Shown here: in pieces, positions 1 through 62,771 of the stretch
Numbering within the stretch: position 1 is the first letter of the stretch
Layout: every line of letters starts with the position of its first letter
Source of the DNA: Endomicrobiales bacterium
GTDB taxonomy: Bacteria > Elusimicrobiota > Endomicrobiia > Endomicrobiales > JAFGIL01
Assembly (NCBI GenBank): GCA_016929635.1
Contig: JAFGIL010000004.1
Coordinates: forward strand, 38,415 to 102,414
Length of the DNA stretch: 64,000 nucleotides
Reading direction: 5' to 3'
The notes under the pieces: model-generated
Seen by the model: the letters and a program-made list of their open reading frames with translations, nothing else
Databases searched by the model: none
Told to the model about the DNA's origin: nothing
Position numbers and translations under genes: made by a program

Positions 1-1
1 T

Positions 2-1559
2 ATCCGGTGTTTCATCTGCTCTTAATTCCGGACCGGATCCCGGCGGGCTATAGGTTTCGCTTGCACGGGTGTCTTTATAATACAACTTTGAATACCATGT
101 ATTGCTTGCAACTTCAACCTGAGTTGTTATACCAGCGGCGAATGGATCGCTTGATGATGAAAAATCGTAATAGTCATTATCAGGAGATGGGAGCCTGTTA
201 GACGTTAAATTGATGAAAATCGTATACGTAGAAATTGCCGGATTGCCGAACTGATCCTGAGGTTCAATTTCAAACTCGCAAACAGGATCCGTTTCTGTCC
301 CTAACCATCCTGCTTCCAATGTATGCACAGGATTATCAAATGCAAGCTTTACGGTTTCGGAATGGTCAACCGTTATACTGCTGACCGCAGTCTGATATCC
401 TCCTTTGATACCTTGTATGGTCCATTTACCCGGACGGCTGTCCTCTCCTGTTGGATAAGAAGACATTTCATCGTAATAATAGAACTGTGCATCATAAGAA
501 CCAAGTTGAATTACAACCTGGGTTACTACCTGATCACTCGGCCATCTGAATTCACCGCTAGGTGAATTTGTTACAAGGCTTACAGTAGTCCTTTCATATT
601 TGGAAGGATTGTTAAAGTCATCATACTGTGCAACTGTTATAGCGGGTGTTAAGCTTCCTGCTTCGAGATTGGACGGTACATTGCTGAACAATAATTTTGA
701 AGGTTCTCCTCCTGTTGTTACAATTTTGCCTGATATATTCTTGTACTGTGAATAGAAACCCGCAGGTATAGTAGTCGGGGCTGCATAAGTTGCAATCCAG
801 ATCCTCGCATAATCGTCGGCTTTGCTGGATACATAGTAGTATAAGGCGGGGCTCAACCCAACGCGGCCTGCACTGTCAGTGGTTGTTGAGGACCATATGG
901 TTCCGGGTGTTTCATCGGGATTTTTCTCCCTTATAGTCCCTGTTGAACCATAAACATCTTTTACTTCCATATATAATGTTACACCCTGTGAAGAAACTTT
1001 ATTATTAAATGAATCCACCATTTGCCCGATAATCTGTATGTTTCCGTACTGGTTCGGAGAGTCTTTTCCGGCAGAGACTTCCGTATCGTGAACAGGAGTG
1101 CCTGTATTAACTGTACTTGTAGATATTACTACCTTACTGAATGCACCGGATTTTACATAAACCTGTGGATTAGAAACCCATCCCGGAACATCTGAAGAAA
1201 TCGTGCTAACAGCCGAATCCCTCACTTTTATCCAGCGTTTATCCGAAGTGCTTTCAGATGCTCTTCTTAATGTGACTCCGTTTACAAACGTCACGGTTCC
1301 GGAATCTGACTGTACCCAAGTATAATCACCTGCATCAGTAGGCAATGTGGCGGTTTGCGGGTCAGGATAAGATTCTGCTTCGAAATGTATTGATCTTCCG
1401 ACGGAATTATCCCAGCTTATTCCCGTTGAAACATGGTTGTGATACTGGTCATAAGCCTGCACTTTAACAGTAAATGCCGATCCTGCGGTCGAGGTTGAAA
1501 CAGTATTTATAAACTTATAATGATGCAAATCATGAGGCCATACGCGCACATATGAAGAA
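2..1559 (-). repeat. Type-3 modules (classical Big_1/invasin-like AG-x-x-F-x-V-x-V-x-A-x-D-x-(Y/F)-x-N units without the LLPGE prefix), continuing beyond the window
   Basis: The translation contains HHYKFINTVSTSTAGSAFTVKVQAYDQYHNHV, KLLFSNVPSNLEAGSLTPAITVAQYDDFNNP and KLAFDNPVHTLEAGWLGTETDPVCEFEIEPQDQFGNPA. The frame is still open at position 2. Confidence 0.6.
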
Positions 1560-31500: not shown

Positions 31501-34500
31501 CTCTTGCTATTATCTGATACGTTGTACCATCCGCCAGCCCCAATCCGCTTAAAGCTGTGTAGGTCCATGAACTGCTCCAGTAATTAACTCCGCTTACCGT
31601 CCACGGTTCAATCTCTACCCACGCGCTGCCTGAGCGGCTGCTTACCTTTACTTCCACGCCGTTAGTGTCATGTATACCGCTCAACTCTGCATCCACTGTT
31701 CCGCTTATGGTCGGGATGGTTGCTAAATCCTGCGCATTAATCGGGTAATCAATACTAATACTGGGCGGTGTAGAATCGAATGCTACGTCAAAAACGTTTG
31801 GCGTTTCAGTATTTCCTTTCTCGTCAATTGCCCAGTATTTAATCCTGTAATACCTGTCACTCTTCCATCCTATGTTATTTCTGTACCATTTAACCCCGGA
31901 TCCCTCTGCTGTGATGTCTGAAGGAGGCAAACTGCTGACATTAACGCCCCAGTTGGTTCCCTTCCAGTATGTATTTGGATATGTCAAATCCTGTATTGTA
32001 ATTCTTACGCTTGCAGGGTTAACAGCGATATCCGCATAATATACTTCCCCGTCGTCTGTTGATGTACCTGAAATAGTATCCAAGTCGTCAACAAAATCAT
32101 CATCAGGCAGGATAATATCGCTTTCCGGTGCATTTGTATCGAAAATAAATGTTATGCTTGAACTGCCTGTTTCAAAATTGTCCTGCAAATTCTTTGCCTG
32201 ATCCCTGGCCCTTGATACTGCCAGGTATTTATTTCCGCTCTGTAAAGGTATGGACGGGTTCGGAATATAAACCCAGCTTGAATTATAAATGAAGAACTGG
32301 CTGCTGACTACGGTATCTGTACTGATCCAGAAAGTAGCGGAATTCCAGTCGCTGTCATCGTTGTAGTATCTGCCTGCGTTTGCAGTAATTTCTCCACCTA
32401 AATCCTGTATATAAACCTGTGCGCGCTCATTCTTTAAATCAGTAATAAGACCGGACAGCGTAGGCAGTGAAATAAGTTCTGCATTATCAACCGGTAAAGT
32501 CACGGTAGCTGTCGGCTTGGTAATATCGTATATAAACTGAACCTCGCCGCTTTGCGCTCCCAGGTTATCTGCTTTATCGGTTGCCTGACATCTTATTCCG
32601 TATAGATAATGGGTCTGGAATACTATGGTTGACGTTGACCATGTTATAGTCTGGTTGGCAGTGCCCGCAGGATTATTTGCATAAAGCCAGTTAGGCCCGG
32701 ATGTAAGAGTAAATGAAGAGGTCGAGGAATCCCACCACATGCCTGTATCAACTTCGCGAATAGCGAACTGAACACCATTGGCCTTAACACCGGCGATATC
32801 ATCCTGTGCGGTTCCGGAAAGCGTTGCAAGCGAATTATAATAGTAACCGTTTTTCGGCAAAGTTATATTACTGGTAGGCCCAAAGCTTTCATAAGTAAAC
32901 GTAACCGCGTTTGCAGCCGGCGGGGTAATCAAAGTAGAATTTTCGTCATAGCCCCATGAATTTGACCCGCGGCTCCTTACGGTATAAGATGAGCCCTGGA
33001 CCCATAAATCATCGCTTATTGAATATGACCAGGTAGGAGAAGAAGGCGCAACGCTCAGCCATCCATTTACTTCGACAGTAGTCCAGGAAGAAGGCGTTGC
33101 GTCAAAGAACTGACCGTCAGAGAGTCTCTGGATAAGTATTTTTAATGATGTTGTCTGTCCGTTGGCTGTTCCTGCAATGGATGTAAGATTGTTATAAAAA
33201 TTATTGTGAGCCGGTGTTTCAATACCAGAAGCAGCATCATCCGGCTTAAAGATAAACGTACGTGTGGTATATGCGATCTGATAATTACCCGCTCTATCCT
33301 GTGCACGGGCACTTAATTCATAACCTCTTTCATAACCATAAAAATCATTATCTGTTACGGAATAATCCCATCTGGATGATGCCGGGGTCCAGGATGTTGT
33401 CAGCCAGCAGCTGCTGTCAAAGGATTTCCAATCCGAACCATCCCAGTACAAGCCGTCAGATGGATTGTTGGTGCGTCTAATGCGAATTCTTACCTCTTCG
33501 ATTTCACATAAGCCGCCTTCCTCAAAATCCTTGGCAGTACCGGAAAGGGTTGTTATCTCAGGCATCTCAACATCATCCGTGTCAGGAAGATTTACTGTTG
33601 ATACCGGGCAAGATGTATCAAATACGAAATAAACACTGCTTGCACTGTATTGCGAATTTACTGCGTTATCGTATGACTTCGCATCAACCGTATAAGAAGT
33701 ATTGCTTGTCCAATAGGAGTTTGCAATGTTATATGTAAATGAAGATGACCACAAACCGCAATCAGGCAAATTTCCTGGTTCAGTATCCTGCCAGCCGCTC
33801 CCTGTAAAATAGTATCCGTCAGACTCACGTTTAATTCTAATTTCTACCAAATTTACATCTGAGTATTTTCCATCACCGGCAGTTACAGAATCAGTCGATG
33901 CTCCCCAGATATACGTTAATGAATTATAATGATCATTATCTACAGGATAATTAACTTCCGAGTCAGGCGGGCTCTGGTCAAATACAAATGTAACTGTCGA
34001 ATAATTAACCTCTAAATTTGTCGCACCATCAACCGCCCTGGACATAATAGAGTATTCATATCCGTCTTGCCATAAAGCAGGGTTAAGCGTGGTTGCCAAG
34101 CTCCAGTTTCCCGGATTTCCATCGGAATATATTGTATTGCCCCATGAATCCGGAGTCCCGTTCCAGAGAAGACCTCCGTTATACCAATCTCCGTTTGAAC
34201 GCAAAATTCTGAAATCTACATCCGTGACGCTGTTGTTTCCCGTGTAAGTATCGTCGGCTGTTCCATATATATTGGTGAAAGTAGTGTTATAATATCCACC
34301 GTCCACCGGAGATGTAGCTATTGAAACAGGCTCTTCGGTGTCGTAGAAAAAGAGAATACCAAAATTATTCCAATCAGCAGGATTTGTAGGTATGTTATTA
34401 ACATTATCAACACCTCTCATTAAGACCCGGTAACTGTAGCCGCTTTGTAGCGTAAAGGATGAATCAGAAATACTCCAATCAGCACCTGTCCTGGCCACAA

Positions 34501-37500
34501 CTCCCCATGAGGAATTATCCAAATCAAAAGCCAGAGTGGTTGGATTCCAGAATTTATTACCTATTCCAAACATATCTCTCATTGCAACCTGCACATATTT
34601 TAAATCTGATACTGTATCCTCAGCTGTACCATATATAGATGTAACTGACTTATAAGCCTGGCCGTAAACAGGATAACTAATTGTAGAAACAGCTACGGAA
34701 TCATCATATGTAAAATCTTTTTCCATAATAGTGGATTCGTTGTTAGCTTTATCTGTTGCTTTAATCCTTATTCTATACAGAACGTCATCGGACCAGGGAT
34801 CGCCGTAGGTTGCAGGTAATAACTGCCATTGGCCATCACCGAGCCCGGATGTAATCTCAAACCAATACTCAGCAGGATTTGCAAGCCATTGTGTGCCATT
34901 CCAATAAGACAGAGCCGCGGTATTTGTTGTTATAGCAACTTCCACTTTTGCAAGCCTGGAAAGTTCATCGTCATCTGCTGTTCCGGAAATTGAAGGTAAA
35001 GTATTGGGGCCTTCGTAGGCATTCCCTGCTCCGTGTCCGTTAGGTTCTACTATTCCGCAAGTCGGCTCATTGGTATCATATGTGAACTTGATTGAATCCT
35101 GTTCCCTGATATTTCCTGCACGGTCGCGGGTTCTAAGCCTGACAAAATATTTCTTACCATTCTCAAGAGTAGGAGTTGTATAAGTCCACTGATTCGGGTC
35201 CGGAACTGTATTATACGTTGTTGTTGTTAACCAGACCTCGCTTGCGCTATTCCATGCATCAACTCCGTTCCACCATGAACCTGCAGGTGTTACTGAATTT
35301 GACGCTATGGCTACTCTAATCCAATCAACCAAACGTTCACTGCTTGTCGGGACATCGTCCCATGATGTTCCCTGAATGGTAATCTGGTCAGTGTCAACAT
35401 ATCCTTCATTAGCAGGATAAGTAACTGTTGATGTAGGATAACTCATATCATAAACAAAAGAATTGTATGAAGTCCAGCTGGACGTTGTTCCGGGAACATC
35501 CCATGCGCGGGCTTGTATTCTATATTCAACTTTATGCAACGGAGCAAAACTGCTCTGCGGCGAATACTCCCAGGTAGGAAGCCCTGATACATCGGTAAGT
35601 ATAGTTGTGCTTCCTGATAAAGCCCATGTCCCGTCACCATCCCCGGTGGGTTGGTCATCGTCTATCCAGTAACGATTGTCATTCATACGCTGAATTCTGA
35701 TTTGCACAGTCTGTACTGCTGAAGTTCCATCTTGTGCTGTACCTGAAATTGTGAACAATGAATTCCTGTAGTTTGTCCCTGTGGGAGGTTTTTGTATTAA
35801 AAGCAACGGCGGTATATTATCAAAAGTAAATGTAGAAGATCTGATGCTATACCATGATTCTTCATTGGCAGGCGATGCATTGTCTCTAGCCATTACTGTA
35901 ACGTAATAAGACGTGCCCGATGTCAAATTACCATCGGTAATAGTGGAATAAGTCCAGGGGTCTCCGGGTGTGCTTATCTGCCTGTATCCTGTAGGAGGAG
36001 CGCTCTGTCCTCCGAAATCAGAAGTACCGTGGTTCCACCACTCTCCATCGCTTAATCTTCGTATTGCTATACGGACACTGCTTACTGTGCCAGGATAATT
36101 TACGCCAGTATCCCTGTCATTACCTGATATTCCTGAAGCGATTGTTCTTACTACTGAACCTTTTGAAGGGAACGTAACGCTTGATATAGGAACATTAATA
36201 TCAAAAGTAAACGTTACAGTTGAATAAATTGACGAATAATTATTTAAGGAATCCTTTGCACGGCTTTCAATCTGGAATCTTTCGTCACTTACATTTATAA
36301 ATGAATGTGTTGTATACCATAATGAATACTGAGGCGTCACTGTTGTTTTAACAACAAACCATGCGCTTTCAGGGTCGCTTTCATTATAATCGGATGTATT
36401 GTATCCATACCCGTCCCAATAATCTCCCAATCTCATATGTTTAATTCTATATTCTACAGATGACATCGAACTTATACCGATATCATAAGCCGTTCCTGAA
36501 ATAGTCACTAGAGTTGAAAGTCTGGGCGTTGCAGGATCAAGAGGCGTGGCATCCTGCGGTTTTGATATAAATGAACTTGGGCCTTTAAGGTCGCAGATAA
36601 ATTTTATTTCTGTATAAGAAGGTTCAGTGTTTGTTGCCCTATCATAAGCTGTAGAACGTATATAATATGTTAATCCATCAGTTAGTGTAGGATTCTGCGC
36701 AAGCGAAATTGTCCAGGTTGATATTCCAACTTTTCCGGTAACATCTGTTGCAGTATGGTAATCTCCGGCATTAATTGTCCATGAGTCACTGCACCAATAA
36801 TAACTATCACTGCCTCGAACAATTGAAACTTGAACAACATTCATACCGGCAACGTTTTCACTTGCAGTTCCTGTAACCTGACTTAATGATGCAATAAATG
36901 TACCGCTGGATGGAAGAGTTGCAAGGGAAGTCGGTGGTGTTATATCCCATGTGAAAGTCCTTGTAGCAAATGCTGTTTCAAAATTGCCCGCTTTATCGTT
37001 TGCCCTGGGCACTATCTCATAAACACCGTCGCTGGGTGTAGAAAGGGCAACGCTAAACGTTCCAAGTTCTGCTTGTTGTATATACCATCTTGTAGTATTC
37101 GAATCATAATGTACATATATCCATTCCGGTACTGTTTTATTCCAGCCCTGAGGCGCATTCTTTCCGTAATAAATACCATTCGAGACTTTTCTTAAAGCAA
37201 TCTGCATGCCTTCATTGAATCCTCCGGCTACAGAATTCGTAGAAACACCGCTTCTGTAATCTGTCCCGGAATCAACGTTATCAACCGCTGTTCCACTTAT
37301 TGTAGGCAGGCTATTTTTCCAGGTGCCGTTCGGAACAGGCGCATAAGCGACTAACGACTCCGGTTTCTTCGTATCATACAGGTAATTAATTCTATCCGTA
37401 ACCGCTTCTTCATTACCTGCTCTATCTATGGCTTTTATCCTGATTTTATATCTAAAACCTGAATCCCAAAGGACATTCTTATATGTCCAGGATGACTGGT

Positions 37501-40500
37501 AATATGTAAATGTCTCCGTAGATGCAAAGTTATCGCTGCCTGACCAAATATTTGTCGGAGGCCCCGTCCAGTAATTAGTAGCGCTTTCAGATAACTGTAA
37601 TATCTTAATCCCCATGGCTTGCCATTCACCATCTCCATAGTCATAAGCTGTACCGCTTATAGTGGGAACAGAATTGTGTATCTCTTTATTCGGATAATAA
37701 AGCACGCTTGTAGGCGGCAAGGTATCAATTATAATAGAATAATTTCCATCTATAGTGGTATAAGCATTACTTGCCTTATCTGTGATTCTTGCATTTACAA
37801 AATACTCTCCCTGGTATTTCCAGCATTCTGTGGGATAAGTTACCTGCCATCTCCAAGGTTCACTGTTTGAATCAAAAGGAGGATTATTAGCTACCGCATT
37901 AATCCATGTATTTGCATTTGTTACCCATCCGGAACCTGTATAGTAATAATTTTGGGTTGTAAACTTCCTAATCTGAACTTCAACTTTATTAACCTGTCCC
38001 GGACTTGTATCCGTGGACTGGCCTGATATTGTAGCCAATGTCTGATGATGAGAACCATTACTAGGTAATGTTATGCTTCCGGCAGGATTTGTTCTATCAA
38101 TATAGAAAATTATACCGCCGCCGGGTGTTTCGTCTCCGGCAGGCCCATATCCTTTTGACTGGACTCTGTATTGTCCTCCGTTCGCCCAAGCATCGCTTGA
38201 TATGTCAATAGACCAAGGACCGGGGTTTCCTTCCGTAAAACTGGTATCTATCCAATAGTTATCATTCTGTATCCATGTCTTTGAATCTTCATCCCATGAT
38301 GTTCCATAGTCAGGAGCGGAGCTGATTCTAATATCAACACCGCCTGATGCAATCTTTGTATATTGATTGGCTGTTCCCTGAATGGTCATTACTGATAAGC
38401 CTTTGTAATAAGCATTGTAAATAGGATAAGTAACCTGGGACTCGGGAAGCGGTGACTGATACCAGAAAGTGTTGGTTGTTGACGCTAGTTCATAGTTAGT
38501 TGCTTCATCCTGTGCTATTGACCACACCCTGTATTCATAACCATTGCCGGATGTAGCATCCCAGGCAACTCCCGAAGAATCATAGGTCCATACGCCTGCA
38601 GCATAAGGTGCATCCAGCCAGGTAGGCGTTGAGGTCCAATCTGTTGGTTGTCCGTTAACCCCGGATGCTAAAGGCCAATACTTATTTGCAGCATTCGGCG
38701 CACTTCCGTCTGCACAATAAATCATTATCCTTACATTATCTACTGTACCAGGCCATGTGTCAGAAGCTGTACCTGTGATTTGCGTTAGGGTATCTATGGG
38801 ATCAGGAGCACCGTCATCATGTACAGGCAGGGTTGGTGCTGAATCCGGTGATGTTGTATCGCAAATGAATGAAGTAGTAGACCATCCGGTTTCATAGTTT
38901 GATGCCCTGTCTTTTGCTTTTGTAATAATGTAGTATGAGGTTGTGTCGTTCCAAACACTAGCCCCTATGTTATATGTCCAAGTCGAGTTTCCCACACCAT
39001 TTACAATAGTTGCGGTTGACCAAATAACGTCCTGTTGAGTAGTCCATGTCCTGGTTATCCAGCCGCTCCACCACTGCGTTGTACTTCCGGCCAAACGTTT
39101 AATACCTATCTCAACTTCATCTACAAGGCTTGCTTCAGGTTGAGCTATTTCATCGTCCTCGCATGTTCCCGAAATAGTAGCCATAGCTCTTGCGTAACCC
39201 GGAGGATATGTGCCGGGTATTGGATGGGAAATAACTTCCGATGTAGGAAGAGTATCATCGTAAGTTATTGTTCCTGTGGAATATGCAGGATTAAGATGCG
39301 CCGGATTTGAAAAGTCCTGGGCTTGTGTGATAACTTCATATCTGTAGCCGTTTGACCATGCCGAAAAGTCGTCAATGTACCATCTGTACAATTTTGTTGC
39401 GGATTCTATCTCATTAATAATAGCTGCTTTTACAAATCCGGGGTTACTGCCCCATGTGGGAGGTGACCATCCCCAATACTCCCAGGTAGATCCATCGTCT
39501 GTTCTTCTAATGTTTACGCGAACATATGCTATGCCCGAGCCTCCTGCATAGTCTATTGCCGTACCGGAAATTGTTGGAATAGAAGAGTTTTGAGCCGAGT
39601 TGTCTGAAGGCAGAGACATAACCGAAGTAGGGGTGGTCTTATCTATTTTAAACTGCACTCCGCCGGTGTTTAACTCAATATCATCATCTGCGTCCGTTTC
39701 AGTCTGATTTCCGTTAGCATATATGATATTACCGTTATAATCTTCGGCTTTTATCCATACCTTGTAGTCGCTATTGTCAGGTAAATCTGTCGGTAATGCT
39801 TTAATCCAGTCAGTTGTTCCTGTGCATAATATCCTGTCCTTGCTGGATACCCAATAAGGTGCAACATAGGTTCCATCCCAGTATTGGCTTAATCCGATAT
39901 TTTTAAGTACTATCCACACATTCTTAACACCGCTTGGGCCATCATTTGCTGTTCCTGAAATTGTATAAACTCCGTTATATTCATCGGCTTCGGGATAAAT
40001 AACCACGGCTGTCGGCGATGATTTATCTATTACAGAAAATACTTCCGTGTAATTTCCTGCTGCGTCATCAGCTCTTGCATAAAACTTGTATGATCCGGTA
40101 CTATCCAAATAACCATCAAATCCTGTAAATTCCCAATTACTACCGTTTATTGAGGCAGCTGAATAAGAAGCATTTTTCGAACCCCCGGTAAAACCTGCTC
40201 CGTCAACATACCACATGCTGTCATATATCCTTTGAATTGTAACGCTTACAGTCGACACATACGAACCAACATCGCTAATCGTACCTGTTGCTGCAGTGTA
40301 ATCAGCCCATGAAGCAAGGTCCGGTTCATAAAGAGTTAAAGTTGGATTTCCATTATCTATGGTAAATGTTATGGAAGAAACAACTGCCTGAACATTAGTT
40401 GCAAGGTCAGTTGCTCTGCATTCAACAGAAAATTGATTATTGTTTAACCACCCGCCAGCAGGAGTAAATGTTGAATACCATATATTATTTCCTGCCTGTT

Positions 40501-43500
40501 GGGCATTATGCCATGAAACTGTAGTTACCCACACCCCAGCAACATATTGATAATATCGAACCTCTACTTTACTAAGTCCTGATAAATCACAATTCGATAC
40601 ACCTGAAATAGTTGTAAGTGCACTTGATTTCTTGTAACTCTTATCTTTAGGATAAGTTACCAGGGATGTTGGAGGTGAGGTGTCAACTATAAACTCAATC
40701 CAACCTCCCCAGCTGCTGGCATTATTCGGAATTGCCTCATCAGTAGCCATTGTTCTTACATAATATCTCTGGTCAGAAGGCATGTTTGTTTCCGCAATAT
40801 CATAATCCCATGTTCCAGATGAATTTCCAGTAAAATATGGATTTTGTTCATTTGTGCCTGTCAGCCAGCCCGTACCTGCTCCATGCCAATAGTACGTTGT
40901 GCCAGTTCCATCAATACGTTTTAATTGAATGTCCACTCCTGAGCCTGCTGCAATATTAGCCGCAACGCCTAATGTTCCGGAATTATCACTGCTTGCTGTA
41001 CCTTGAATTGTAAAGGTTACCGGAGGATTAACCTTTAAGCCATTTGTAGGATAAGTAACAAACGATACAGGTATACCTTCAGGAGTCCTGTCACAATACA
41101 CGCTTCTGGAAGATGTGTCTACAGTAAATGCTGTTTGTAAATTACCTGCATTATCATAAGCTCTGACTTTTAATGTATATAATTTGTCATTTGTTATAAT
41201 CAGCGGTGTTGTATAAGACCAGGTGCTTGTCCACACATCGCAAATTGTCCAGGAGGAGCCATAATTAAAACTATTACTGCCATGATACCAATATTTAGGT
41301 GTTGTGCCACTTTCTTCAATTAGAATCTGTACGGTTCCTACACCAGAGGCAGAGGTTCCTGAGCCGGAGCTGTTATCTGATTGGTCTCCATAAATAGTGG
41401 TCAATGCTGAATGTACTGCCTGATTGTCAGGTGCAGTAAACAAGACATTCGGTGCAGCGTTATCATATGTAAATGCTTTTGATTTTTCTGTGTAATTGCC
41501 GGCTTTATCGGTGGCTCTAAACCTGACGGTAAAATTCTTGGGTTCGTCATGGCCTTCCCATATAACACCGCTTACCATGTCAGCATGAGAATAATAGTAT
41601 CTATTACCACCTGCAGAGGTTGCTGGAAGCCAGGTAGGTGTAGCTGTAAATGTTGACACACCGTCCCAGTACTCACTACCTCCTTTAGCTGTTATTGCAA
41701 ACTCCAATGCAGACAGCGATGGTTGAACAGGATTATCCGAATCAGTGGCTGTTCCTGAAATAGTGGCAAGAGCGCTTAAATTATTGAAACTAGAGAAAGG
41801 CCTCTCAATACCGGTTAAAGGAGCTGTTGAATCTATAACAAAAGTGCCTCCTGTTGTATTAATAGGGGATTCAGCATTAGCGTCTCTCCATGATTTGCTA
41901 ACAACTCTGTATATTCTATTCTGATTCCAGTTAACTCCCGGATTAGGCATAAAATAACGCCATTCACCGCTAGCGGTATCTAAATTATTACCCCAGGATA
42001 CAGGCACAAAAGTCGAAAGTGCTATCCAATCCGAACCATCCCAGCATAAATCATCATCACTGCCAGGGGTTCCCTCCGCATCATCCGGGCCAAAATCCTG
42101 AATTCTTACAGTTACAGTTGAAGACCAGATACAGGTACCTGAGATTGTTGCAAGACTGGCAGCCTGTATATTATCCTGAGTAGCATCCGGGTACAGCACG
42201 CCAGATTCAGGAGGAGGGGTCTCGTAAGTGAAGACATGCGTTGATGTTTTTACATTAAGCGCTTTATCGATAGCTCTTACCTTTATTAAGTATGTTTCGC
42301 CATCCGACCACGAGGGGACTGAAGTACCGTGTATCTCCCACTCATCCGTTCCTGAATTATAATTTGCAGGGAACCATATTTCCGAACCCTCATCAAAATT
42401 TCCATCGCCATCCCACCAATTCCCCGTATGCGCAGGATACTGATATGCGCAGTCAATATCCGTTACGTCTTCGTTTTGGCCTGAAAAACCTTGATAATCA
42501 TAAGCTGTACCGGATATGGTCGTTAGGGTATTTGTTGTTTCAAAATCATCAGGATTAGTGATGGTAAGATATGGGGCTGAACTATCAACAATAAAATAGC
42601 TTACATTTGAATCTGTCCAGTCAGTACTTGCCGTTTCTACGTTTCCTTCTATGTTATTGCTGCTGTCTCGCGCTTTGTCCAAACCCATCGACCTTATACG
42701 GTATCTTCTTCCCGCGCTGTTCTCAAAAGTAAAGAACTGGAGCAGCCACGGTAACGCAGTGGTATGCGTGCTGCTAAGAGGGGTTGTTTCCCACTGGAGG
42801 TTATTTTCACTCCAATATTTATCATCTCCTCCTCCTAAAACGTCATTCTCTCCATAATCTAGCAATTCAACAAAGACTTTTTCTATTCCGGTACCGATAC
42901 CGTCAGGCAAATCTGCGGCTGTTCCGGAAATTTGATCCAGCGTATTGGTTGTTTTATTATATTGATTAGCATATTGCCCACCAGAATCATCAGGAAGTAT
43001 TACAGTTGAGCTCGGGGCTAAAACCTCATAATAGAATGTAGACTTAAGTATTGTATAATCTTCAATATTTCTGTAGCTTGTATCAGGATTGATAGTCCTG
43101 TCTATTGCCCAAACCCAGACCTTAAAGGTTTCAGTTGAAGTGCCGAAAAACGCATTTATATCATTGATAATATATTCCCAGTCACCCTCGCTAGCAGGGG
43201 TACCTCCATTAAATGTGGCTGTATTTGTTGATATAACTGCTCCCCAATTAGTATCGTTCCACCACTGCCCGTCTGTTACCCTTTGTATCTTAATTTTAAC
43301 ACCGCTTCCCGCAATACCTGCTCTTGTAGTTAAACTTGGGTAATCTTTTGCTGTTCCGGAAATAACGCTGAGTTTATCTTTATATGTAGCATTCTTTAAA
43401 GGATATGTAACCTCTGACTCAGGAGCTTCTGTGTCATGCCTGAAATAAACTGTTGTACCCCACTGCAACAGATTGCCTGCAATATCTCTTGATCTTACCT

Positions 43501-46477: not shown

Positions 46478-48111
46478 TTTTTAAGCCATATTATGATTCT
46501 GTTTAAAATATCCTGACTTTCAGATATATGTGCATTTGTGAAAATATCCGTATCCCCTGAAGCTAAAATACGGTCATTTGCTATCATTATTGTTGTATCT
46601 GATAAATCATTTTCACCTTTAGTTAGAGGAGATATCATGCCGGATCCGATATCTTCACCCCAGCACTTCTCATCACCTTTTATCCATACATCAAAATTGT
46701 TTTTTTCATACCCAACTATACATCCTTTATATACAGGATACTCAAAGAAAATGTTATCATCTTTACACAAGGCAAACCTGGAAAAAGTCATGCCAAAATT
46801 TGCCGCAATATCATTTAGAGGATCTCCTAATTTTTCAAATCCCATTTTTCTGGCACTTCTGCATATACTATCAGTCCCTTCCAATGCCAAGTGAAATTCC
46901 CCCAAAAGTATTATTCTCTTAGAAGAAGAAAGATCCGGAATTCTTTTATATTCTTCCAGCGGAGTGGCAATTAAAACTGCGTCATATTCCTTATATGAGC
47001 CTGATGAGCTGGAAAAAGTCAGGATACCGTTATCCCTAAGAAAACATGCCATTTTATACAGCCCGCTCAGCGACGCATCTGCTTTACGGGCGTAATGTGA
47101 TTCATCGATTAGAAACTTCATTCCTTCATTATTTTTAGGTAAAAGAAAATAAACTACTGCCATGCCTTTATCAGAGACGAACCTAACCCAACCATCCTTT
47201 TCAACTTTTATATTCCATACGCTTTTATTTTTTCTCTGTTTTACCAGATTGACCGTGCCACCTGAAATCTCCGGAGTTAAAATTTCTTCAGAGTATAAGG
47301 TAATTTCCATTTCATTGGCAGTAAACAAATTATAATCAGCAGGTATGGTCTTCTTTACCTCTTCTCCTGAAAGCCATTTTATTATTTCTAAAGTGAAATT
47401 TTTATTTTGGCCGTAAATAATGCCCCCATTCCAATAAAACTCCGAGTCCCCGATAGCTATAATTCTGCCATCACCATGCTTTTTATATACACCCGCAACA
47501 GCTTCTCCGTTTTTAATATTCTCATCCCTGACAACCAATAGAGGATTTACATCTTTATCATATGTCAAAGAAGCGCTGCAAAATAATCCAATATTTTCCA
47601 TCTTCAAAAAAGGAGAGGATGCTTTTATCCATGTATGTTTCTGTTTAATAGCTTTTTCTTCCGTTATTCTGATAGCATCGTTATTAAAATGTATGCCGTA
47701 GTTTGCAACAATTCCTTTCTGAAAGTCAGACATCCCCACTGAATTATCATGCTCGCTAATAACAAGTATACCGCCGCCTCTTTTGACAAACTCTCTCACT
47801 GCTTCAATTTCACCTGGTCTGTAGCTGGCATTCACTGCTTCGCTTAAAACCAAAACGTCTCCCTTGCCGAGGTCATTTATGATTTTATCTAAAGGGAGGG
47901 TATTTACGTCTACAATATATCCTTCATCCATTAAGCATGTTGCTAATTTGGATTTCCCAAAGAAACTTGTATCCCACACAGGCCAGCCCTGAAGGAAATG
48001 TGACTCATCAAAAACAACCTTAAAGGAACGGGGTGATTCTGCAAAAGATGCCTGAGATAAAAGAATTATATATATAAACATAATAATTAAACTGAATTTG
48101 CTTTTATGCAT
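46474..48111 (-). CDS. Secreted protein with two tandem class-I glutamine-amidotransferase-like (ThuA/DUF4350-type) domains; function unknown
   Basis: 545-aa ORF in the track. The N-terminal signal peptide is MHKSKFSLIIMFIYIILLSQASFA|E. There are two internally similar halves. The first is KVVFDESHF...GYIVDV...GDVLVLSEA...EIEAVREFVKRGGGILVISEH. The second is KFLIDESHY...GILTF...YDAVLIATP...RIILLGEFH. Its stop overlaps the giant gene's start (ATGA). The fold assignment comes from motif resemblance only. Confidence 0.85.
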   Translation of the reverse strand: MHKSKFSLIIMFIYIILLSQASFAESPRSFKVVFDESHFLQGWPVWDTSFFGKSKLATCLMDEGYIVDVNTLPLDKIINDLGKGDVLVLSEAVNASYRPGEIEAVREFVKRGGGILVISEHDNSVGMSDFQKGIVANYGIHFNNDAIRITEEKAIKQKHTWIKASSPFLKMENIGLFCSASLTYDKDVNPLLVVRDENIKNGEAVAGVYKKHGDGRIIAIGDSEFYWNGGIIYGQNKNFTLEIIKWLSGEEVKKTIPADYNLFTANEMEITLYSEEILTPEISGGTVNLVKQRKNKSVWNIKVEKDGWVRFVSDKGMAVVYFLLPKNNEGMKFLIDESHYARKADASLSGLYKMACFLRDNGILTFSSSSGSYKEYDAVLIATPLEEYKRIPDLSSSKRIILLGEFHLALEGTDSICRSARKMGFEKLGDPLNDIAANFGMTFSRFALCKDDNIFFEYPVYKGCIVGYEKNNFDVWIKGDEKCWGEDIGSGMISPLTKGENDLSDTTIMIANDRILASGDTDIFTNAHISESQDILNRIIIWLKK

Positions 48112-49717
48112 GATGCTGCCTCCAAATAGAAACTAAAACAATAACGTAATAAATATAGTAATTAATAAAATACAGGTTTTCCTGCCATTTTTTCTTTGTC
48201 ACCAAAATATATGATAAAATGCCGAAAATTACCGTATAAGAATAAAGCGCATTTATTCTTAAAATGATAGGAACGGAAATAAAGCCGATAAAAGATAGAA
48301 TACCGACTATTCTTCTGCCGTTTCTTTCGCCAAAAATTGTCGGTATTGTTTTTATGCCTGCCTTAGTATCGCCTTCAATATCTTTTATGTCTTTCATATT
48401 TATAGTCAGAAAGAAAGAAACCAGAAGAGCCAACGCAATCTTGGGCGGAAATGCATACAGATTTTCAGATCCGCTCAGCAATGAAAATCCTATAAGCATG
48501 GCCACAAGCCCGTTAAAAGCTACAAATAATGTAGAGAACGGGAAAATCTTCTTAATCCTAAACGGGGGCACAGAATAAAGCTGATAACATACAATAAACA
48601 GAATAGTTAAAAGAAACGCCCATATACTGGTTGAGAATGCAAAATATAAAGATAATATAAGAAAAATTTTACCAATAATTTTATAATCTTCCATCATTAT
48701 ATTTCCTTTGATCAAAGGCCTTTCGGGATTTGAAATTTTGTCTATTCCCTCATCGGCAATATCATTAGAAACAACCGCATACTGAAACGCAAAGAATAAT
48801 GCAAATGCTAAGCCGAACACCGCAATATAATCAAACGGACACTGAAAGGGATACGGCCAGTTTTTCCCTAAATTCCAGTAGCCGATAAATACTCCGCCAA
48901 CCAGCAAACCCAGATAGTGAATCACGCGATATATTCTGATGTTTTTTATTAATGAAACTAGTACTTTTTTATTATATAGATAAAGCCAAAGTATTGAAAA
49001 AACAGTAACAACAAAAAGCCATACAAGGGCTATTGCATATTCACTCCTGTCAAAAAATCCATATGTTAAAAACACTTTATAATATGCCCCAATATCTCTT
49101 CTGCTGGGAAAAGGAAGGAAATCTATTATATAAGCAGTATAAAGGGGTAATCCCAAAAACATCATCCAAGCATAACCTCCCAAAAAACCTAAAATTGATT
49201 TCCATAATTTGCTGGTTTTTATATAAATATACACTATCACTAATAAAATTATAAGCAGAAATTCTATTCTTAATCCAGTTGAAGCCCATTGCGAAAAACT
49301 TACCATGGGATTAAACGCATGAATAAAGAATCTCATGACTTCTTTTATTTCAAAAACGTATTTCATAGGGCACCCCGCCCCTTTGGAAATAATAAAGTCC
49401 AGAAGCGGCAAGGCCCATATAACAGGAGTAAACAATATGACAACTTTAGATATTTTGTCTATTCTTTCCTTTGTAAAAATATAAAGGACAAAAATTACAG
49501 CTAACGCTGCCCCGGTTATAAATAAATTATAGGAAGTAAATCTTAACAGCGCATAATAAGGCTCCTTCATGAATCCAAGGAAATGATTAGGATGTGATAG
49601 GACCGATTCAAGCATAAGGCGTACAAAAACAACAGAAATATATGCAAGTATCCAGTTCCAAAAACCAAGTTTTGTATTTTCAATTGATTCAATTAATCGT
49701 TTTAAGAATTTAGTCAT
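48104..49717 (-). CDS. Polytopic membrane protein: unknown ~300-aa multi-TM N-terminal domain fused to a UbiA-superfamily prenyltransferase domain
   Basis: 537-aa ORF, hydrophobic throughout. It carries both UbiA Asp-rich motifs: NDIADEGIDKISNPERPL (N-x3-D-x3-D) and KDIKDIEGDTKAGIKTIPTIFG. It overlaps the downstream gene by 8 nt and the upstream gene by 4 nt. Confidence 0.8.
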   Translation of the reverse strand: MTKFLKRLIESIENTKLGFWNWILAYISVVFVRLMLESVLSHPNHFLGFMKEPYYALLRFTSYNLFITGAALAVIFVLYIFTKERIDKISKVVILFTPVIWALPLLDFIISKGAGCPMKYVFEIKEVMRFFIHAFNPMVSFSQWASTGLRIEFLLIILLVIVYIYIKTSKLWKSILGFLGGYAWMMFLGLPLYTAYIIDFLPFPSRRDIGAYYKVFLTYGFFDRSEYAIALVWLFVVTVFSILWLYLYNKKVLVSLIKNIRIYRVIHYLGLLVGGVFIGYWNLGKNWPYPFQCPFDYIAVFGLAFALFFAFQYAVVSNDIADEGIDKISNPERPLIKGNIMMEDYKIIGKIFLILSLYFAFSTSIWAFLLTILFIVCYQLYSVPPFRIKKIFPFSTLFVAFNGLVAMLIGFSLLSGSENLYAFPPKIALALLVSFFLTINMKDIKDIEGDTKAGIKTIPTIFGERNGRRIVGILSFIGFISVPIILRINALYSYTVIFGILSYILVTKKKWQENLYFINYYIYYVIVLVSIWRQHHA

Positions 49718-51009
49718 GGCAAGCTCTCCGCATCTACGCGATTTAAGTAATTTTTCATAATTACAACGCTTAATTTAACGTCTTTAAATATTAATCTTCG
49801 ATGGTCCCAGATTCTTTTTGGAAAACTCATACGAAAATGGTTGTTCAAATCTTCATACACCTGTTTTAATCCTTCCTTTACTTCTCCTGCCGTCATATTT
49901 TTGGGTTTGAAGTTGCAGTTATACCAGGAATATTTTGACCAGTCATAGTTTAGTATCCTTTTTTCTTCATTTAAATGTTTAAACAATTGAGTTCCCGGAT
50001 ATGGGGTTAAGATATATAAAATTGCATCGTCCAGGTTCATTTCCTTTATCATTTCTGCGGTGCAGGAAAAAGTGCTTTTGTCGTCATTGTCAAACCCGAA
50101 CATAAAGAACCCGTCTACAAGGATCCCTTTTTTATGCATGGTTTCAATCGTTTTTTTATACTCATTAACCCTGTTATGGCTGATGTTGCTTAAATCCAGG
50201 GTATCTTGGTTTATGGATTGGAAACCCATGCTTACTGCATAGCACCCGGCCTCAGCCATTAAATCAAGCATTTCTTCTTCTTTTGCAATACTTACGGGTG
50301 ACTGAACAAACCATTTCTTTTTTAAGGGTGTAATTTTTTTCATGACATCTTTTACGTACTCTTTATCTACGAACAGATTATCATCTATCACAAATACATA
50401 CTTATCATTTATCCGGCTTATTTCCTCGTATATTCTTTCCGGGGTTCTCTTCCTGTAGTTTTTCCACGGCACGGACTGAAGATAACAGAAGTAGCAGCTG
50501 TTAACACATCCCCGTGTAAACTGGATGGGGGCGTGTAAATGCTTTTTTGCAAAAAGGTCTCTTCTGGGAATCGGCACATTGTCTAAACTTTCCGAATAAT
50601 TGCCGTTATAAACCTTTTTAAGCTCCTTTTTTTCCAAATCATTCAGCAGCTTCTGCCATACGGGCTCTGCTTCGCCGATTACGACTGAATCGCAGTAATT
50701 TGACGCTTCCTCAGGTATAATTGACGGATGAGGGCCTCCCAAAACCGTCTTTACTCCTGCTTTTCTGAATTTCGTTGAAATCTCGTACGCCCTCTTAGCG
50801 GTAAATGTCACCACTGTTATGCCTACTAAATCCCAATCAGACGAATACGTTATCTCTTCTATATCCTCATCAATGATCCGTACATTGTGCTCCTGCGACA
50901 ATGCTGCTATAATGCCCAAATTCAGAGGGGCAACGCGGTTAAGATCCCTGAATTTGTAAACATCGCCATTGATGAACCATTTTGGTTTTATTAAAAGAAT
51001 ATTCAGCAT
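49714..51009 (-). CDS. B12-binding-domain radical SAM enzyme (class B)
   Basis: 431-aa ORF. The N-terminal cobalamin-binding-like region is MLNILLIKPKW...APLNLGIIAALSQEHNVRIIDEDIE. It is followed by the radical SAM cluster motif FTRGCVNSCYFCY (C-x3-C-x2-C). Confidence 0.85.
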   Translation of the reverse strand: MLNILLIKPKWFINGDVYKFRDLNRVAPLNLGIIAALSQEHNVRIIDEDIEEITYSSDWDLVGITVVTFTAKRAYEISTKFRKAGVKTVLGGPHPSIIPEEASNYCDSVVIGEAEPVWQKLLNDLEKKELKKVYNGNYSESLDNVPIPRRDLFAKKHLHAPIQFTRGCVNSCYFCYLQSVPWKNYRKRTPERIYEEISRINDKYVFVIDDNLFVDKEYVKDVMKKITPLKKKWFVQSPVSIAKEEEMLDLMAEAGCYAVSMGFQSINQDTLDLSNISHNRVNEYKKTIETMHKKGILVDGFFMFGFDNDDKSTFSCTAEMIKEMNLDDAILYILTPYPGTQLFKHLNEEKRILNYDWSKYSWYNCNFKPKNMTAGEVKEGLKQVYEDLNNHFRMSFPKRIWDHRRLIFKDVKLSVVIMKNYLNRVDAESLP

Positions 51010-51029
51010 CTTTTCTCCCTGCTTGTATT

Positions 51030-51509
51030 CTAATTCATGCTTAGTACTTTCTGTCTTAATGCCATCAAATCCTTATACACTTCCCTTGTATTCGTAGGCA
51101 AATCCCCTTTTATATATATAACTTCCTGCTTTTTTTCGGTTACAATTAAAATTTTTGTCAGCAAGCTTTCACCTGTCTTTGTGGGTATTAATTCCTGCTT
51201 GAACCCGCCTTTATCCTTCAGTTTCTGTACCAGTGTTCTAAAATCTTCCTTCGGCTGCGTTATTGTTTTTTTGTCGGAATTAACCCCAGAACCTGTTTTA
51301 GTTCTGATAATTTTCCCGTTATCCTTCAGGGTAAGGATTTCTACTATGTCAGTGCCGAGAAGCTCACGTACTAACTTGATTTCTTTTACAATCTCTCTCT
51401 TGTTTATCCTAACCGTTTTTTCGTTCTCGGCAATGTTTGTCTTGCTGACTGTTGCACAGCCGAAAATAGAAAATGATAGAAATATCAATGCAATTTGTTT
51501 CAGTTCCAT
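51030..51509 (-). CDS. Small lipoprotein, function unknown
   Basis: 159-aa ORF. Its N-terminus MELKQIALIFLSFSIFGCATVSK has a lipobox-like S-I-F-G-C. The mature part is Lys/Glu-rich. Confidence 0.65.
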   Translation of the reverse strand: MELKQIALIFLSFSIFGCATVSKTNIAENEKTVRINKREIVKEIKLVRELLGTDIVEILTLKDNGKIIRTKTGSGVNSDKKTITQPKEDFRTLVQKLKDKGGFKQELIPTKTGESLLTKILIVTEKKQEVIYIKGDLPTNTREVYKDLMALRQKVLSMN

Positions 51510-51844
51510 ATTACTTCCTCATTCGGATCTTTGCTTTGAAATAAAATGCGTCCTTCTCTCATGGCCTGTTTATAGTGAGACAGCTTTGCAAACCCGAACT
51601 GGTCATCATCATCGTTTATCACAATATCCAGCTCTGCTAACGGGTCATGCAGATAACAATAAAAATTTCTCTGCAGATTAGTTAATGCAGAACCAACGTC
51701 ACTGCCGTATGCTCTTAAACTTGTTGAGAGCGGGCAATATGCTAAATATTGATCATTTATTTTTTCTAATATTATTATATATTTCATAAACGCGCCTTGT
51801 ACAAATATAAATAAAATATTCTTACTGACTATTAAATTTTTCAA
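51500..51844 (-). CDS. HicB/UPF0150-like small protein (antitoxin-like fold); the true start is probably the internal ATG at 51787
   Basis: From the internal Met the protein reads MKYIIILEKINDQYLAYCPLSTSLRAYGSDVGSALTNLQRNFYCYLHD. This resembles HicB-family N-termini (MKY-x-V-I-L-E-K-D-x-x-G-Y-x-A-Y-V-P...G.T.EEAL.N...A). An AAGG lies 9 nt upstream of the 51787 ATG. No HicA-like partner is visible. Confidence 0.5.
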   Translation of the reverse strand: MKNLIVSKNILFIFVQGAFMKYIIILEKINDQYLAYCPLSTSLRAYGSDVGSALTNLQRNFYCYLHDPLAELDIVINDDDDQFGFAKLSHYKQAMREGRILFQSKDPNEEVIWN

Positions 51845-51921
51845 AGATAAATCTAGTTTCCGTTACTTTTTTTGATTTTTTAGGGTCTAAACATTGGGTT
51901 TTGCAGGTATGTTTTGAGGTC

Positions 51922-52434
51922 TCATAACCGAAGGGTTTGGGGGGCTGTTTTCCGTCTGAGGAGTGAAAATTTGAGGTTGAAGAGGAAAAAATTGAGGAAT
52001 GATATTTTAAAAGCTAAAAAGCCCAATAAACAAATCAGGGCTTTATCCCACTTCTGTTTTGTATTGGGAGCCAGACAGCTAATGCACCTGTTGACTATAT
52101 ATCGCCAGCGTTTTGTGAATGCGAAAGCCGCCAGACTCAATTTTTTCTTTATAATCTCAAGCGAACGGGATATCGAGTGAATCTCTGAATATAATAATAA
52201 ATTATATAATCCCGAACGGAAAAGCATCTGAAGTTCAATTATAGCATTTTGATTTTCTATTGGTTGGTTATTTTCGTCGCGGGCATCCAAATCCTCAAAA
52301 GAATCACTAATTTGCGGCAGGAAATCTGACAAATAAAAAACTTCCGTTTTACTTGCACCCGTAGCATCCATACTAAATGGAAGTACAGTTAAAATAGCTA
52401 GGCATAAAATTAGTAACGGAAGTTTTACTTTCAT
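51922..52434 (-). CDS. Small secreted or membrane-associated hypothetical protein; first ORF behind the riboswitch-like leader
   Basis: 170-aa ORF. The signal-peptide-like N-terminus is MKVKLPLLILCLAILTVLPFSMDATGA. It is followed by an acidic segment and a hydrophobic C-terminal third. A GAAGG Shine-Dalgarno lies 5 nt upstream of the ATG. I recognise no family. Confidence 0.55.
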   Translation of the reverse strand: MKVKLPLLILCLAILTVLPFSMDATGASKTEVFYLSDFLPQISDSFEDLDARDENNQPIENQNAIIELQMLFRSGLYNLLLYSEIHSISRSLEIIKKKLSLAAFAFTKRWRYIVNRCISCLAPNTKQKWDKALICLLGFLAFKISFLNFFLFNLKFSLLRRKTAPQTLRL

Positions 52435-52437
52435 ATA

Positions 52438-52530
52438 GACCTTCGGCGGCCCGGCTGCCTTGTTCCGACATAACGTCGAAGTTTAGGCCCGCAGCTTTGC
52501 GACCTCTGGTTTCCCGGAGTGTGCCTTTTT
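52438..52530 (-). promoter_or_regulatory. c-di-GMP-I (GEMM-I) riboswitch candidate in the 5' leader of orf170
   Basis: The minus-strand RNA is GGCACACUCCGGGAAACCAGAGGUCGCAAAGCUGCGGGCCUAAACUUCGACGUUAUGUCGGAACAAGGCAGCCGGGCCGCCGAAGG. Its core GUCGCAAAGCUGCGGGCCUAAAC matches the Vibrio cholerae Vc2 aptamer core GACGCAAAGCCUCCGGCCUAAAC, as I recall it, at 19 of 23 positions. A GCACA element lies 5' of the core. A GAAA-capped hairpin (CUCCGG-GAAA-CCAGAG) sits where P2 would be. GCUGC pairs with GCAGC as in P3. The 3' tail GGCAGCCGGGCCGCCGAAGG resembles Vc2 GGUAGCGGGGUUACCGAUGG. The segment is GC-rich and structured within an AT-rich intergenic region, directly behind a strong promoter. Confidence 0.72.
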
Positions 52531-52553
52531 CGGGTATTTTTAGACCCTATTAT

Positions 52554-52582
52554 AATATAGCAGACCATAAAATCTTTGTCAA
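52554..52582 (-). promoter_or_regulatory. Sigma70-type promoter driving the riboswitch leader
   Basis: On the minus strand: TTGACA (52582..52577), a 17-nt spacer (aagattttatggtctgc), then TATATT (52559..52554). The predicted start is near the GGGUC at about 52547. Confidence 0.6.
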
Positions 52583-52674
52583 GTCTTTTTGCTATATATT
52601 TTTTTCTGAAAAAATGAATTTTTATTATTGTTAAAATGCATTGTATTTTGAGTCATATTTAAATCTGCATTAAA

Positions 52675-62764: not shown

Positions 62765-62771
62765 TTCTTCA

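Follow-up and report, generated by a model that had tools for sequence, protein, structure and literature searches.

A c-di-GMP-I riboswitch aptamer leading a seven-gene string with a giant gene at its end, from an Endomicrobiales bacterium

We analyzed a stretch of 64,000 nt (the 64-kb window) from an uncultured Endomicrobiales bacterium of the phylum Elusimicrobiota (contig JAFGIL010000004.1, positions 38,415 to 102,414). Its minus strand carries an aptamer of the class-I cyclic di-GMP riboswitches (c-di-GMP-I, GEMM-I), placed between a promoter and the first open reading frame (ORF) of a string of seven genes, the last of which is a giant ORF. A first-pass annotation, made from the sequence alone, had drawn attention to this leader. 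The promoter, the aptamer and its parts are listed here with nucleotides numbered as in the Vc2 riboswitch of Vibrio cholerae; the numbering was cross-checked against the base pairs given in PMC11705072.

52582..52554, minus strand: sigma-70-type promoter; −35 TTGACA at 52582..52577, 17-nt spacer, extended −10 of TG plus TATATT at 52559..52554
52536..52439, minus strand: c-di-GMP-I (GEMM-I, type 1) aptamer, full length, with P1, P2 and P3 around a three-way junction
52535..52531, minus strand: P1 5′ strand, ACCCG, which pairs with CG-(AA bulge)-GGU at 52445..52439
52530..52525, minus strand: J1/2, AAAAAG, in the form of the RF01051 consensus; G52525 is Vc2 G20
52524..52499, minus strand: P2 hairpin with a GAAA tetraloop at 52513..52510 and one C.A mismatch in the stem
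52521, 52502 and 52501, minus strand: P2 internal loop, C24 and U43 (rare) and the conserved C44, respectively
52498..52496, minus strand: J2/3, AAA; A52498 is Vc2 A47 and A52497 is A48
52495..52449, minus strand: P3 with the tetraloop receptor CCUAAAC...AAGG (CCUAAAC at 52487..52481) and the bulged G83 at 52455
52480..52464, minus strand: distal hairpin of P3, 6 bp, an insertion relative to the models
52448..52446, minus strand: J3/1, CGC; C52446 is Vc2 C92
52445..52439, minus strand: P1 3′ strand, CGAAGGU, including the probable Shine-Dalgarno sequence GAAGG at 52444..52440

Identity and conserved features of the aptamer

When the whole window was searched against Rfam with cmscan, a single match exceeded its gathering score, at 52534..52441 on the minus strand. 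The best-ranked family at the site was RF03167 (c-di-GMP-I-GGC), whose model was covered in full (1-80 of 80) with 62.9 bits against a gathering score of 59 (E = 1.7e-12; 1.1e-14 in a local rerun). A permissive local scan of 52300-52700 returned no match to c-di-GMP-II (RF01786), the control proposed in the first-pass annotation, even at E ≤ 10, and its additional matches were noise-level microRNA families only.

The aptamer was also scored with covariance models of our own. Model R1 was built from 21 aligned aptamers (alignment A1), the one in the window among them. With R1, another 109 aptamers, taken from 98 other loci, were then aligned (alignment A2); model R2 was built from A2 alone, without the window sequence. 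The window aptamer scores 76.5 bits with R1 and 72.1 bits (E ∼1e-20) with R2, whose own members span 43–85 bits. In A1, 92% of the cells of the structure are paired, far above shuffled and slid controls, and double changes are found in 14 of the 20 pairs; for P2 and P3 alone the figures are 97% and 12 of 15. The aptamer further stands out by a GC content of ∼60% in a spacer of 19%. The RNA is a c-di-GMP-I (GEMM-I) aptamer of the tetraloop/receptor type and of the canonical class; the full-length Rfam match and the R2 score thus bear out the GEMM-I-like riboswitch that had been proposed. R1 and R2 also gave a weak match inside the giant ORF, at 24655-24703 on the minus strand (∼10–11 bits), with most of P2 and P3 deleted; a second aptamer at this place was considered and, at E-values of 0.4–0.7, judged to be a chance match.

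All conserved core nucleotides are present in the window, namely G20, A47, A48, A49, C92, C44 and G83 together with the GAAA loop and the CCUAAAC receptor, in agreement with the list of highly conserved c-di-GMP-I nucleotides in PMC3764141. Among the 109 independent aptamers of A2, C92 is a C in all, at a position that the search pattern left free; C44 is present in 109 and G83 in 108. A47-A49 were likewise found in 109 of 109, in part imposed by the search pattern, and G20 in 107 of 109, where the base was fixed by the retrieval pattern. G20 contacts the G-alpha base of the ligand (PMC6140456, PMC3764141), and ligand-contact roles in c-di-GMP-I have been described for A47, A48 and C92 as well (PMC3764141, PMC6140456). 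By alignment, the position of A47 is that of the base intercalating between the two ligand guanines, and C92 forms the Watson-Crick pair with G-beta. The elements for docking of the GAAA loop into its receptor and for the C44-G83 inter-helix pair are present, and docking is predicted.

All P3 pairs are standard, as are five of the six P2 pairs. The GNRA-capped, P2-like hairpin noted in the first-pass annotation is found with its GAAA tetraloop, while the GCACA that it cites is the start of the P2 5′ strand (GGCACAC, with the rare C at 24) and not the GCACA of a Vc2-type J1/2. C24 and U43 occur together in three unrelated genomes as well (L052, L084, and L121), and a further locus, L096, has C24 with C43. 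The C24/U43 combination may be an isosteric replacement of an A.A contact.

The promoter agrees with the consensus at 11 of 12 positions in addition to the TG, as expected from the near-consensus TTGACA-17-TATATT element that was first noticed. It is the sole strong site in 51800-52900 (1.1 kb), where promoter-like sites number three in total, not above the 3.4 expected from shuffled sequences. From the spacing, transcription is predicted to start at ∼52548-52546 (A/GGG), about 12 nt before the aptamer. As the aptamer ends at 52439 and the first ORF begins with the ATG at 52434, the leader indeed sits between the promoter and the first ORF.

The gene string and related loci

Seven genes follow the aptamer on the same strand.

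51922..52434, minus strand: first ORF, 170 aa, ATG at 52434; signal-peptide-like N-terminus, hydrophobic C-terminus, no Pfam family
51500..51844, minus strand: small ORF, 114 aa with the TTG start or 95 aa with the ATG at 51787; no family match
51030..51509, minus strand: lipoprotein-like ORF, 159 aa, overlapping the preceding ORF by 10 nt; no Pfam match
49714..51009, minus strand: B12-binding radical SAM enzyme, 431 aa (PF04055, 1.9e-19; PF02310, 9.5e-12)
48104..49717, minus strand: UbiA-family prenyltransferase, 537 aa (PF01040, 1.1e-30), overlapping the radical SAM gene by 4 nt
46474..48111, minus strand: DUF4350 protein (GldG/ABC-auxiliary-like, from Pfam), 545 aa, overlapping both neighboring genes
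46477..1, minus strand: giant ORF, 15,492 codons or more, running off the window edge, with an N-terminal signal peptide

The view that the aptamer heads a gene string ending in a protein of more than 15,000 aa thus holds. Gene calling on an independent assembly of the same region (Logan contig L001) gave the first ORF as well, and an exact-sequence look-up of it returned no record. The radical SAM and UbiA proteins are each 100% identical to a protein on a 158-kb contig of a metagenome-assembled genome (MAG) annotated as Endomicrobiales bacterium, and the UbiA protein has an N-terminal extension of ∼250 aa. The giant protein has a high content of Thr, Ser, Gly and Asp, and its matches to bacterial Ig-like domains are weak; a homolog search with its first 600 aa gave no match, its low-complexity words having probably swamped the candidates. 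Between 51509 and 46474 there are five junctions in a row, each of them either an overlap or a gap of at most 20 nt. Promoter-like sites in 46300-52450 number 16 versus 23 in shuffled sequences, and terminator-like sites are not in excess either. A single operon from the riboswitch to the giant gene is the best reading of these seven genes.

Elsewhere in the window, at 59180-63791 on the plus strand, two genes encode proteins with N-terminal prepilin-type methylation motifs, one of them a 1,194-aa PA14-domain protein. The pair resembles an adhesion module of the pseudopilin or type IV pilus-like kind, close to the giant-gene locus.

Three Omnitrophota contigs (L132, L133, and L134) were located via a radical SAM protein of 59% identity, and each carries an aptamer-like RNA.

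L133:5788-5930, plus strand, with identical copies at L132:7234-7376 and L134:5788-5930: Omnitrophota aptamer-like RNA; 38.5 bits with R1 (E = 1e-11), 35.9 bits with R2 (E = 5e-9)

The RNA of L133 is preceded by a promoter of the same type as in the window (TTGACA-17-TATATT) and keeps G20, A47, C92, P1, and P3. The last nucleotides of its P1 are CCGAAGG, and an ATG comes 7 nt later, which is the CCGAAGG-N7-ATG junction of the window; as the outer P1 pair, G-C stands in place of the A-U of the window, a compensatory change. About 64 extra nt form two hairpins set into the P2 internal loop (minimum free energy z-score −3.6). The aptamer is followed by a first ORF with weak similarity to that of the window (E = 2e-5), by small and HEAT-repeat genes, and then by the gene for a 7,297-aa protein, whose repeats match the giant protein of the window with 26–31% identity over 450–490 aa (E down to 1e-26). 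Among the ∼135 loci compared, these three contigs are the only ones that match the giant protein.

The recurrence of the layout in Omnitrophota is suggestive and does not amount to a statistical association. One may go further and propose that c-di-GMP control and a shared layout of giant-gene loci (aptamer, small membrane ORF, giant repeat protein, and neighboring HEAT, UbiA and B12-radical SAM genes) are conserved in Elusimicrobiota and Omnitrophota, with the RNA of L133 as a five-helix structural variant whose ligand might differ. Such a five-helix junction would be a GEMM-I aptamer rebuilt by two hairpins inserted in the P2 internal loop, undescribed so far if true. We put this proposal forward tentatively and think it rather doubtful as it stands.

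Related genes were also found at loci without the aptamer. Near the closest UbiA homologs (L002–L004) there was no riboswitch, only a tRNA; one of these loci, L004, has UbiA and DUF4350 genes at 64–66% identity and is a contig of only 1.9 kb. No aptamer was found at the four loci retrieved by a metagenome scan with the radical SAM protein (L125–L128), nor at the other loci with HEAT, UbiA and radical SAM genes (L129–L131, L135, and L136). The UbiA and B12-radical SAM genes are adjacent and usually overlap in Elusimicrobiota and Omnitrophota, often with a HEAT-repeat gene ahead of them; in the window the order of the pair is reversed, radical SAM first and then UbiA.

L129:8447-10770, L135:168-4265, L136:1838-4125, L130:27-2183, L132:3-2926 and 48104-51009 of the window: pairs of UbiA and radical SAM genes

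One of these loci, on an Elusimicrobiota MAG, also gave a sub-threshold match to RF03531 at L129:4134-4237 on the plus strand (46.6 bits versus a gathering score of 65.2, E = 5e-5). RF03531 is a Clostridioides difficile small RNA described as ‘included into helicase gene’, and the match lies inside an intein-containing UvrD helicase gene; it probably reflects conserved coding sequence.

Expression platform and reach of control

The sequence GAAGG lies inside the 3′ strand of P1, at the very end of the aptamer, with 5 nt between it and the ATG of the first ORF. Other genes in the window carry GGAG, GGAGG or GAAGG-type Shine-Dalgarno sites, and GAAGG is the probable ribosome-binding site (RBS) of the first ORF. 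No intrinsic terminator was found after the aptamer on the minus strand. Since the 3′ strand of P1 also holds the probable RBS and a terminator is lacking, control is predicted to act at translation initiation, and as P1 stabilized by the ligand would occlude the RBS, the leader would be a translational OFF switch. An aptamer abutting the start codon is a common minority design: an ORF starts at most 25 nt from the aptamer in 29 of 105 other aptamers, an upper estimate from a crude screen that includes spurious GTG and TTG starts.

We therefore favor as likely, with good though not complete confidence, the view that the 5′ leader of an operon of seven genes holds a class-I c-di-GMP riboswitch of the canonical type, which acts on translation and is most simply turned OFF by its ligand. 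This reading builds on the identity of the aptamer and its core nucleotides, the match of the promoter, the overlap of P1 and RBS, the packing of the genes and the recurrence in Omnitrophota. In such a mechanism, transcription would start ∼12 nt upstream of the aptamer at the near-consensus extended −10 promoter, and the aptamer would bind c-di-GMP via G20, A47, and C92. Binding would lock the short, bulged P1 (ACCCG / CG-AA-GGU), whose 3′ strand is the GAAGG RBS, and translation initiation of the first ORF would be lowered. With less translation of the first ORF, the output of the two small ORFs, the B12-radical SAM enzyme, UbiA, DUF4350 and the giant surface protein would drop too, the likely route being lost translational coupling or Rho-type polarity. 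For the sign taken by itself, that c-di-GMP turns translation OFF, we would put the chances only a little better than even.

The opposite sign is the strongest alternative, and we see it as a possibility of clearly lower standing. With the same aptamer and ligand, GGGCC from the 3′ strand of P3 would pair with GGUCU in the ligand-free state and mask the RBS, and the ligand would recruit the P3 strand and allow translation, so that the giant surface protein would be made at high c-di-GMP, like classical adhesins. The GGGCC:GGUCU hairpin is present both in the unconstrained minimum free energy (MFE) fold and in the centroid, and 52441-52437 is 98% paired in the ensemble; moreover, Vc1-gbpA (PMC4744006) and Bc2-cap (PMC4933901) were reported to respond positively to c-di-GMP. 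However, the ligand-bound fold pairs the same GG-U in P1, so an ON switch would have no state with a clearly free RBS. The overlap of P1 and RBS is conserved in L133, and nearest-neighbor energies disregard tertiary contacts and the energy of ligand binding. The first-pass annotation had implied that c-di-GMP turns adhesion on here; the second-messenger switch stands, but an RBS in the 3′ strand of P1 most simply predicts repression.

When P2 and P3 are folded without P1, the energy is −34.7 kcal/mol, and a GGGU:ACCC hairpin forms at the 5′ end, next to a GAAG:CUUC hairpin that is weak. The energies do not settle the direction of the switch, because the ligand-free MFE fold and the ligand-bound fold both pair the GG of the RBS. 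We also observed that the predicted 5′ end of the transcript, AGGGUCUA (52548-52541, minus strand), nearly repeats the region of the P1 3′ strand and RBS, AAGGUCUA (52443-52436, minus strand). A 5′ anti-P1 element was considered here, as GGGU at 52547-52544 pairs with ACCC in predicted folds; a counterpart is not evident in the leader of L133, so we regard the element as speculative and set it aside.

It is less likely, and in our judgment improbable, that the reach of the riboswitch ends with the first small ORF or ORFs and that the enzymes and the giant gene have internal promoters. A transcript of 50 kb is demanding, the AT-rich gap after the first ORF, described below, holds promoter-like matches, and the UbiA and radical SAM genes of L133 are placed upstream of its aptamer, beyond its control. 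On the other hand, the shortage of promoter-like sites relative to shuffled sequences, the lack of a convincing terminator and the five tight junctions speak against a restricted reach, and in both lineages the aptamer is followed by a same-strand giant gene with homologous repeats.

Several observations count against the translational OFF switch at the head of one operon. The P2 stem has its C.A mismatch, and the C24/U43 internal loop is rare, being carried by 2–3% of the aptamers in A2. As a Shine-Dalgarno site, GAAGG at a spacing of 5 nt is no more than moderate. The MFE fold of the leader (−38.2 kcal/mol, versus −27.3 kcal/mol when P1 is enforced) misses the aptamer, and through the GGGCC:GGUCU hairpin it would mask the RBS in the ligand-free state too. 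The AT-rich gap of 78–135 nt after the first ORF holds weak promoter-like matches of 9–10 of 12 positions, and the predicted co-transcription from one promoter would span ∼52 kb. No GGDEF, EAL or HD-GYP gene lies within the 64-kb window. The L133 RNA reaches 33.5 bits in Rfam, below the gathering score of 59, and, as L132–L134 are near-identical, the recurrence in Omnitrophota represents one independent lineage.

Family label, ligand and known systems

The RF03167 label could be taken to mean a true c-di-GMP-I-GGC variant with an altered ligand. The variant was reportedly defined in a paper by Weinberg et al. of 2017, and the ‘GGC’ of its name presumably stands for the bases at positions 20, 47, and 92, with which the printed consensus lines are consistent. 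At these positions the window has G-A-C, as does the RF01051 consensus, versus G-G-C in the RF03167 consensus. The first J2/3 position is thus an A in the window and a G in the variant: the G of CGCGAAgC is the only conserved junction nucleotide of RF03167 that the window lacks, where it reads CGCAAAGC. Of the RF01051 consensus gaaAAaGGCAAAc...GACGCAAAgC...GcUgCC, the window agrees with gaaAAaGGCAAAc...GACGCAAAgC. The Rfam output retains only the best member of each clan; one more clan model, presumably RF01051 (gathering score 35 bits), also passed its own gathering score at the site.

A scan of GTDB representative genomes for AAAGGCANAC-N-GNRA-N-GGNCGC[A/G]AAGC gave at least 120 loci in many phyla. 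Among the matches listed, A47 was found in 124 of 124 and G47 in none, though the pattern allowed G. When 18 of these loci were run through Rfam, 14 of their 20 aptamers were labeled RF03167 and six RF01051, and all have A47. The RF03167 model includes P1 (c-cg...cg-aa-g) and the CCGAAG tail, whereas RF01051 leaves the termini unpaired. As RF03167, unlike RF01051, scores P1 and this tail, it often wins for A47 aptamers that carry a CCGAAG tail. By E-value, a match to RF01051 of 72.9 bits ranks behind RF03167 matches of ∼62–71 bits, and the clan winner is apparently picked by E-value and not by bits. Given that 14 of 20 canonical A47 aptamers bear the label, it is no evidence of altered specificity: the RF03167 label of the window aptamer is an artifact. 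Although RF03167 ranks first and its 62.9 bits exceed the gathering score, we consider a true variant with an altered ligand very improbable. The first-pass annotation had held that a better match to another family would speak against the GEMM-I assignment; formally such a match was printed, but with A47 in place and the same label on canonical aptamers it is non-diagnostic.

Loci whose A47 aptamers are labeled RF03167 include L008, L012, L018, L021, L025, L033, L040, L041, L045, L049, L052, and L079. Two c-di-GMP-I aptamers a few hundred nt to ∼3 kb apart were seen at L119, L115, L089, L050, L071, L110, L038, L015, L041, L064, L066, and L081, some of them directly in tandem (e.g., L089 and L050).

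A GEMM-Ib riboswitch sensing 3′3′-cyclic GMP-AMP (cGAMP) shares the fold, and the first-pass annotation had left the specificity open. In cGAMP-selective GEMM-Ib members, A replaces G20 (PMC6140456), where the window has G52525. Wild-type Vc2, with G20, binds cGAMP only at ∼10 μM but c-di-GMP with picomolar affinity (PMC6140456). The G at position 20 therefore favors c-di-GMP over cGAMP, and a cGAMP sensor appears even less probable than the altered-ligand variant. The earlier statement that c-di-GMP and cGAMP cannot be told apart by eye is thereby narrowed in favor of c-di-GMP, as far as a ligand can be read from sequence: we predict that the ligand is c-di-GMP, and neither cGAMP nor an unknown molecule. 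Equally remote is a decaying, non-functional relic, which the P2 C.A mismatch and the rare C24/U43 loop might suggest, but the conserved core nucleotides are all intact, the score is typical of the family, the C24/U43 pair recurs in three unrelated genomes, and promoter and start codon are precisely placed around the aptamer.

Compared with RF01051 and Vc2, the window has the same three-helix junction, the GAAA tetraloop with its CCUAAAC receptor, G20/A47/C92, A48, A49, and C44-G83, and its J1/2 and J2/3 are identical to the consensus. It differs in the 6-bp distal extension of P3, the one P2 mismatch, the rare C24/U43 loop and the Elusimicrobiota host. With RF03167 it shares the P1 sequence (C-CG...CGAAG), the AAAAAG of J1/2 and the compact base of P3, and it differs in having A, not G, at the variant-defining position 47. 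GEMM-Ib, as in Gs1761 of Geobacter, has the same fold and belongs to the same clan but requires A20 (PMC6140456), where the window has G20. No feature of the window places the aptamer outside the GEMM-I family. The RNA itself is a further member of an abundant, well-characterized class and teaches nothing new about riboswitches.

More surprising than the RNA is what it would control: an Elusimicrobiota gene of more than 15,000 codons, echoed in Omnitrophota. Vc1-gbpA (PMC4744006) is likewise a c-di-GMP-I switch heading the mRNA of a secreted or surface adhesion protein, and so, reportedly, is Bc2-cap (PMC4933901), ahead of a collagen adhesin gene. Several other c-di-GMP-I aptamers that we retrieved precede ORFs of 1,100–2,200 aa. 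In contrast to Vc1-gbpA and Bc2-cap, the target in the window is the last of seven genes and exceeds theirs 5- to 10-fold in size, and P1 and RBS overlap directly, with neither a terminator nor a long platform. The sign that we predict may also be opposite. Giant genes of Omnitrophota and PVC bacteria (bioRxiv 10.1101/2023.11.21.568195; 10.64898/2026.06.07.730766) similarly encode secreted, repeat-rich proteins of more than 10,000 aa. The giant protein of the window, from Elusimicrobiota, is of this kind, and its repeats have homologs in a giant protein of Omnitrophota. The text of neither survey mentions c-di-GMP or riboswitches, and neither describes the regulatory link. Literature on c-di-GMP riboswitches in Elusimicrobia was also looked for, and nothing specific was found.

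For annotation in general, RF03167 in Rfam 15 together with clan competition is a pitfall, as the label could wrongly imply an altered ligand specificity. For the organism, from an uncultured phylum, the locus would link the giant gene, with its more than 15,000 codons, and an unusual set of enzymes (B12-radical SAM, long UbiA, and DUF4350) to c-di-GMP as a lifestyle signal, and this link, which recurs in Omnitrophota, hints at the timing of giant-gene expression. A heterologous reporter could test the link to the giant gene without culturing the organism. If it is true that c-di-GMP control is conserved at giant-gene loci, it would be the first regulatory handle on bacterial giant genes.

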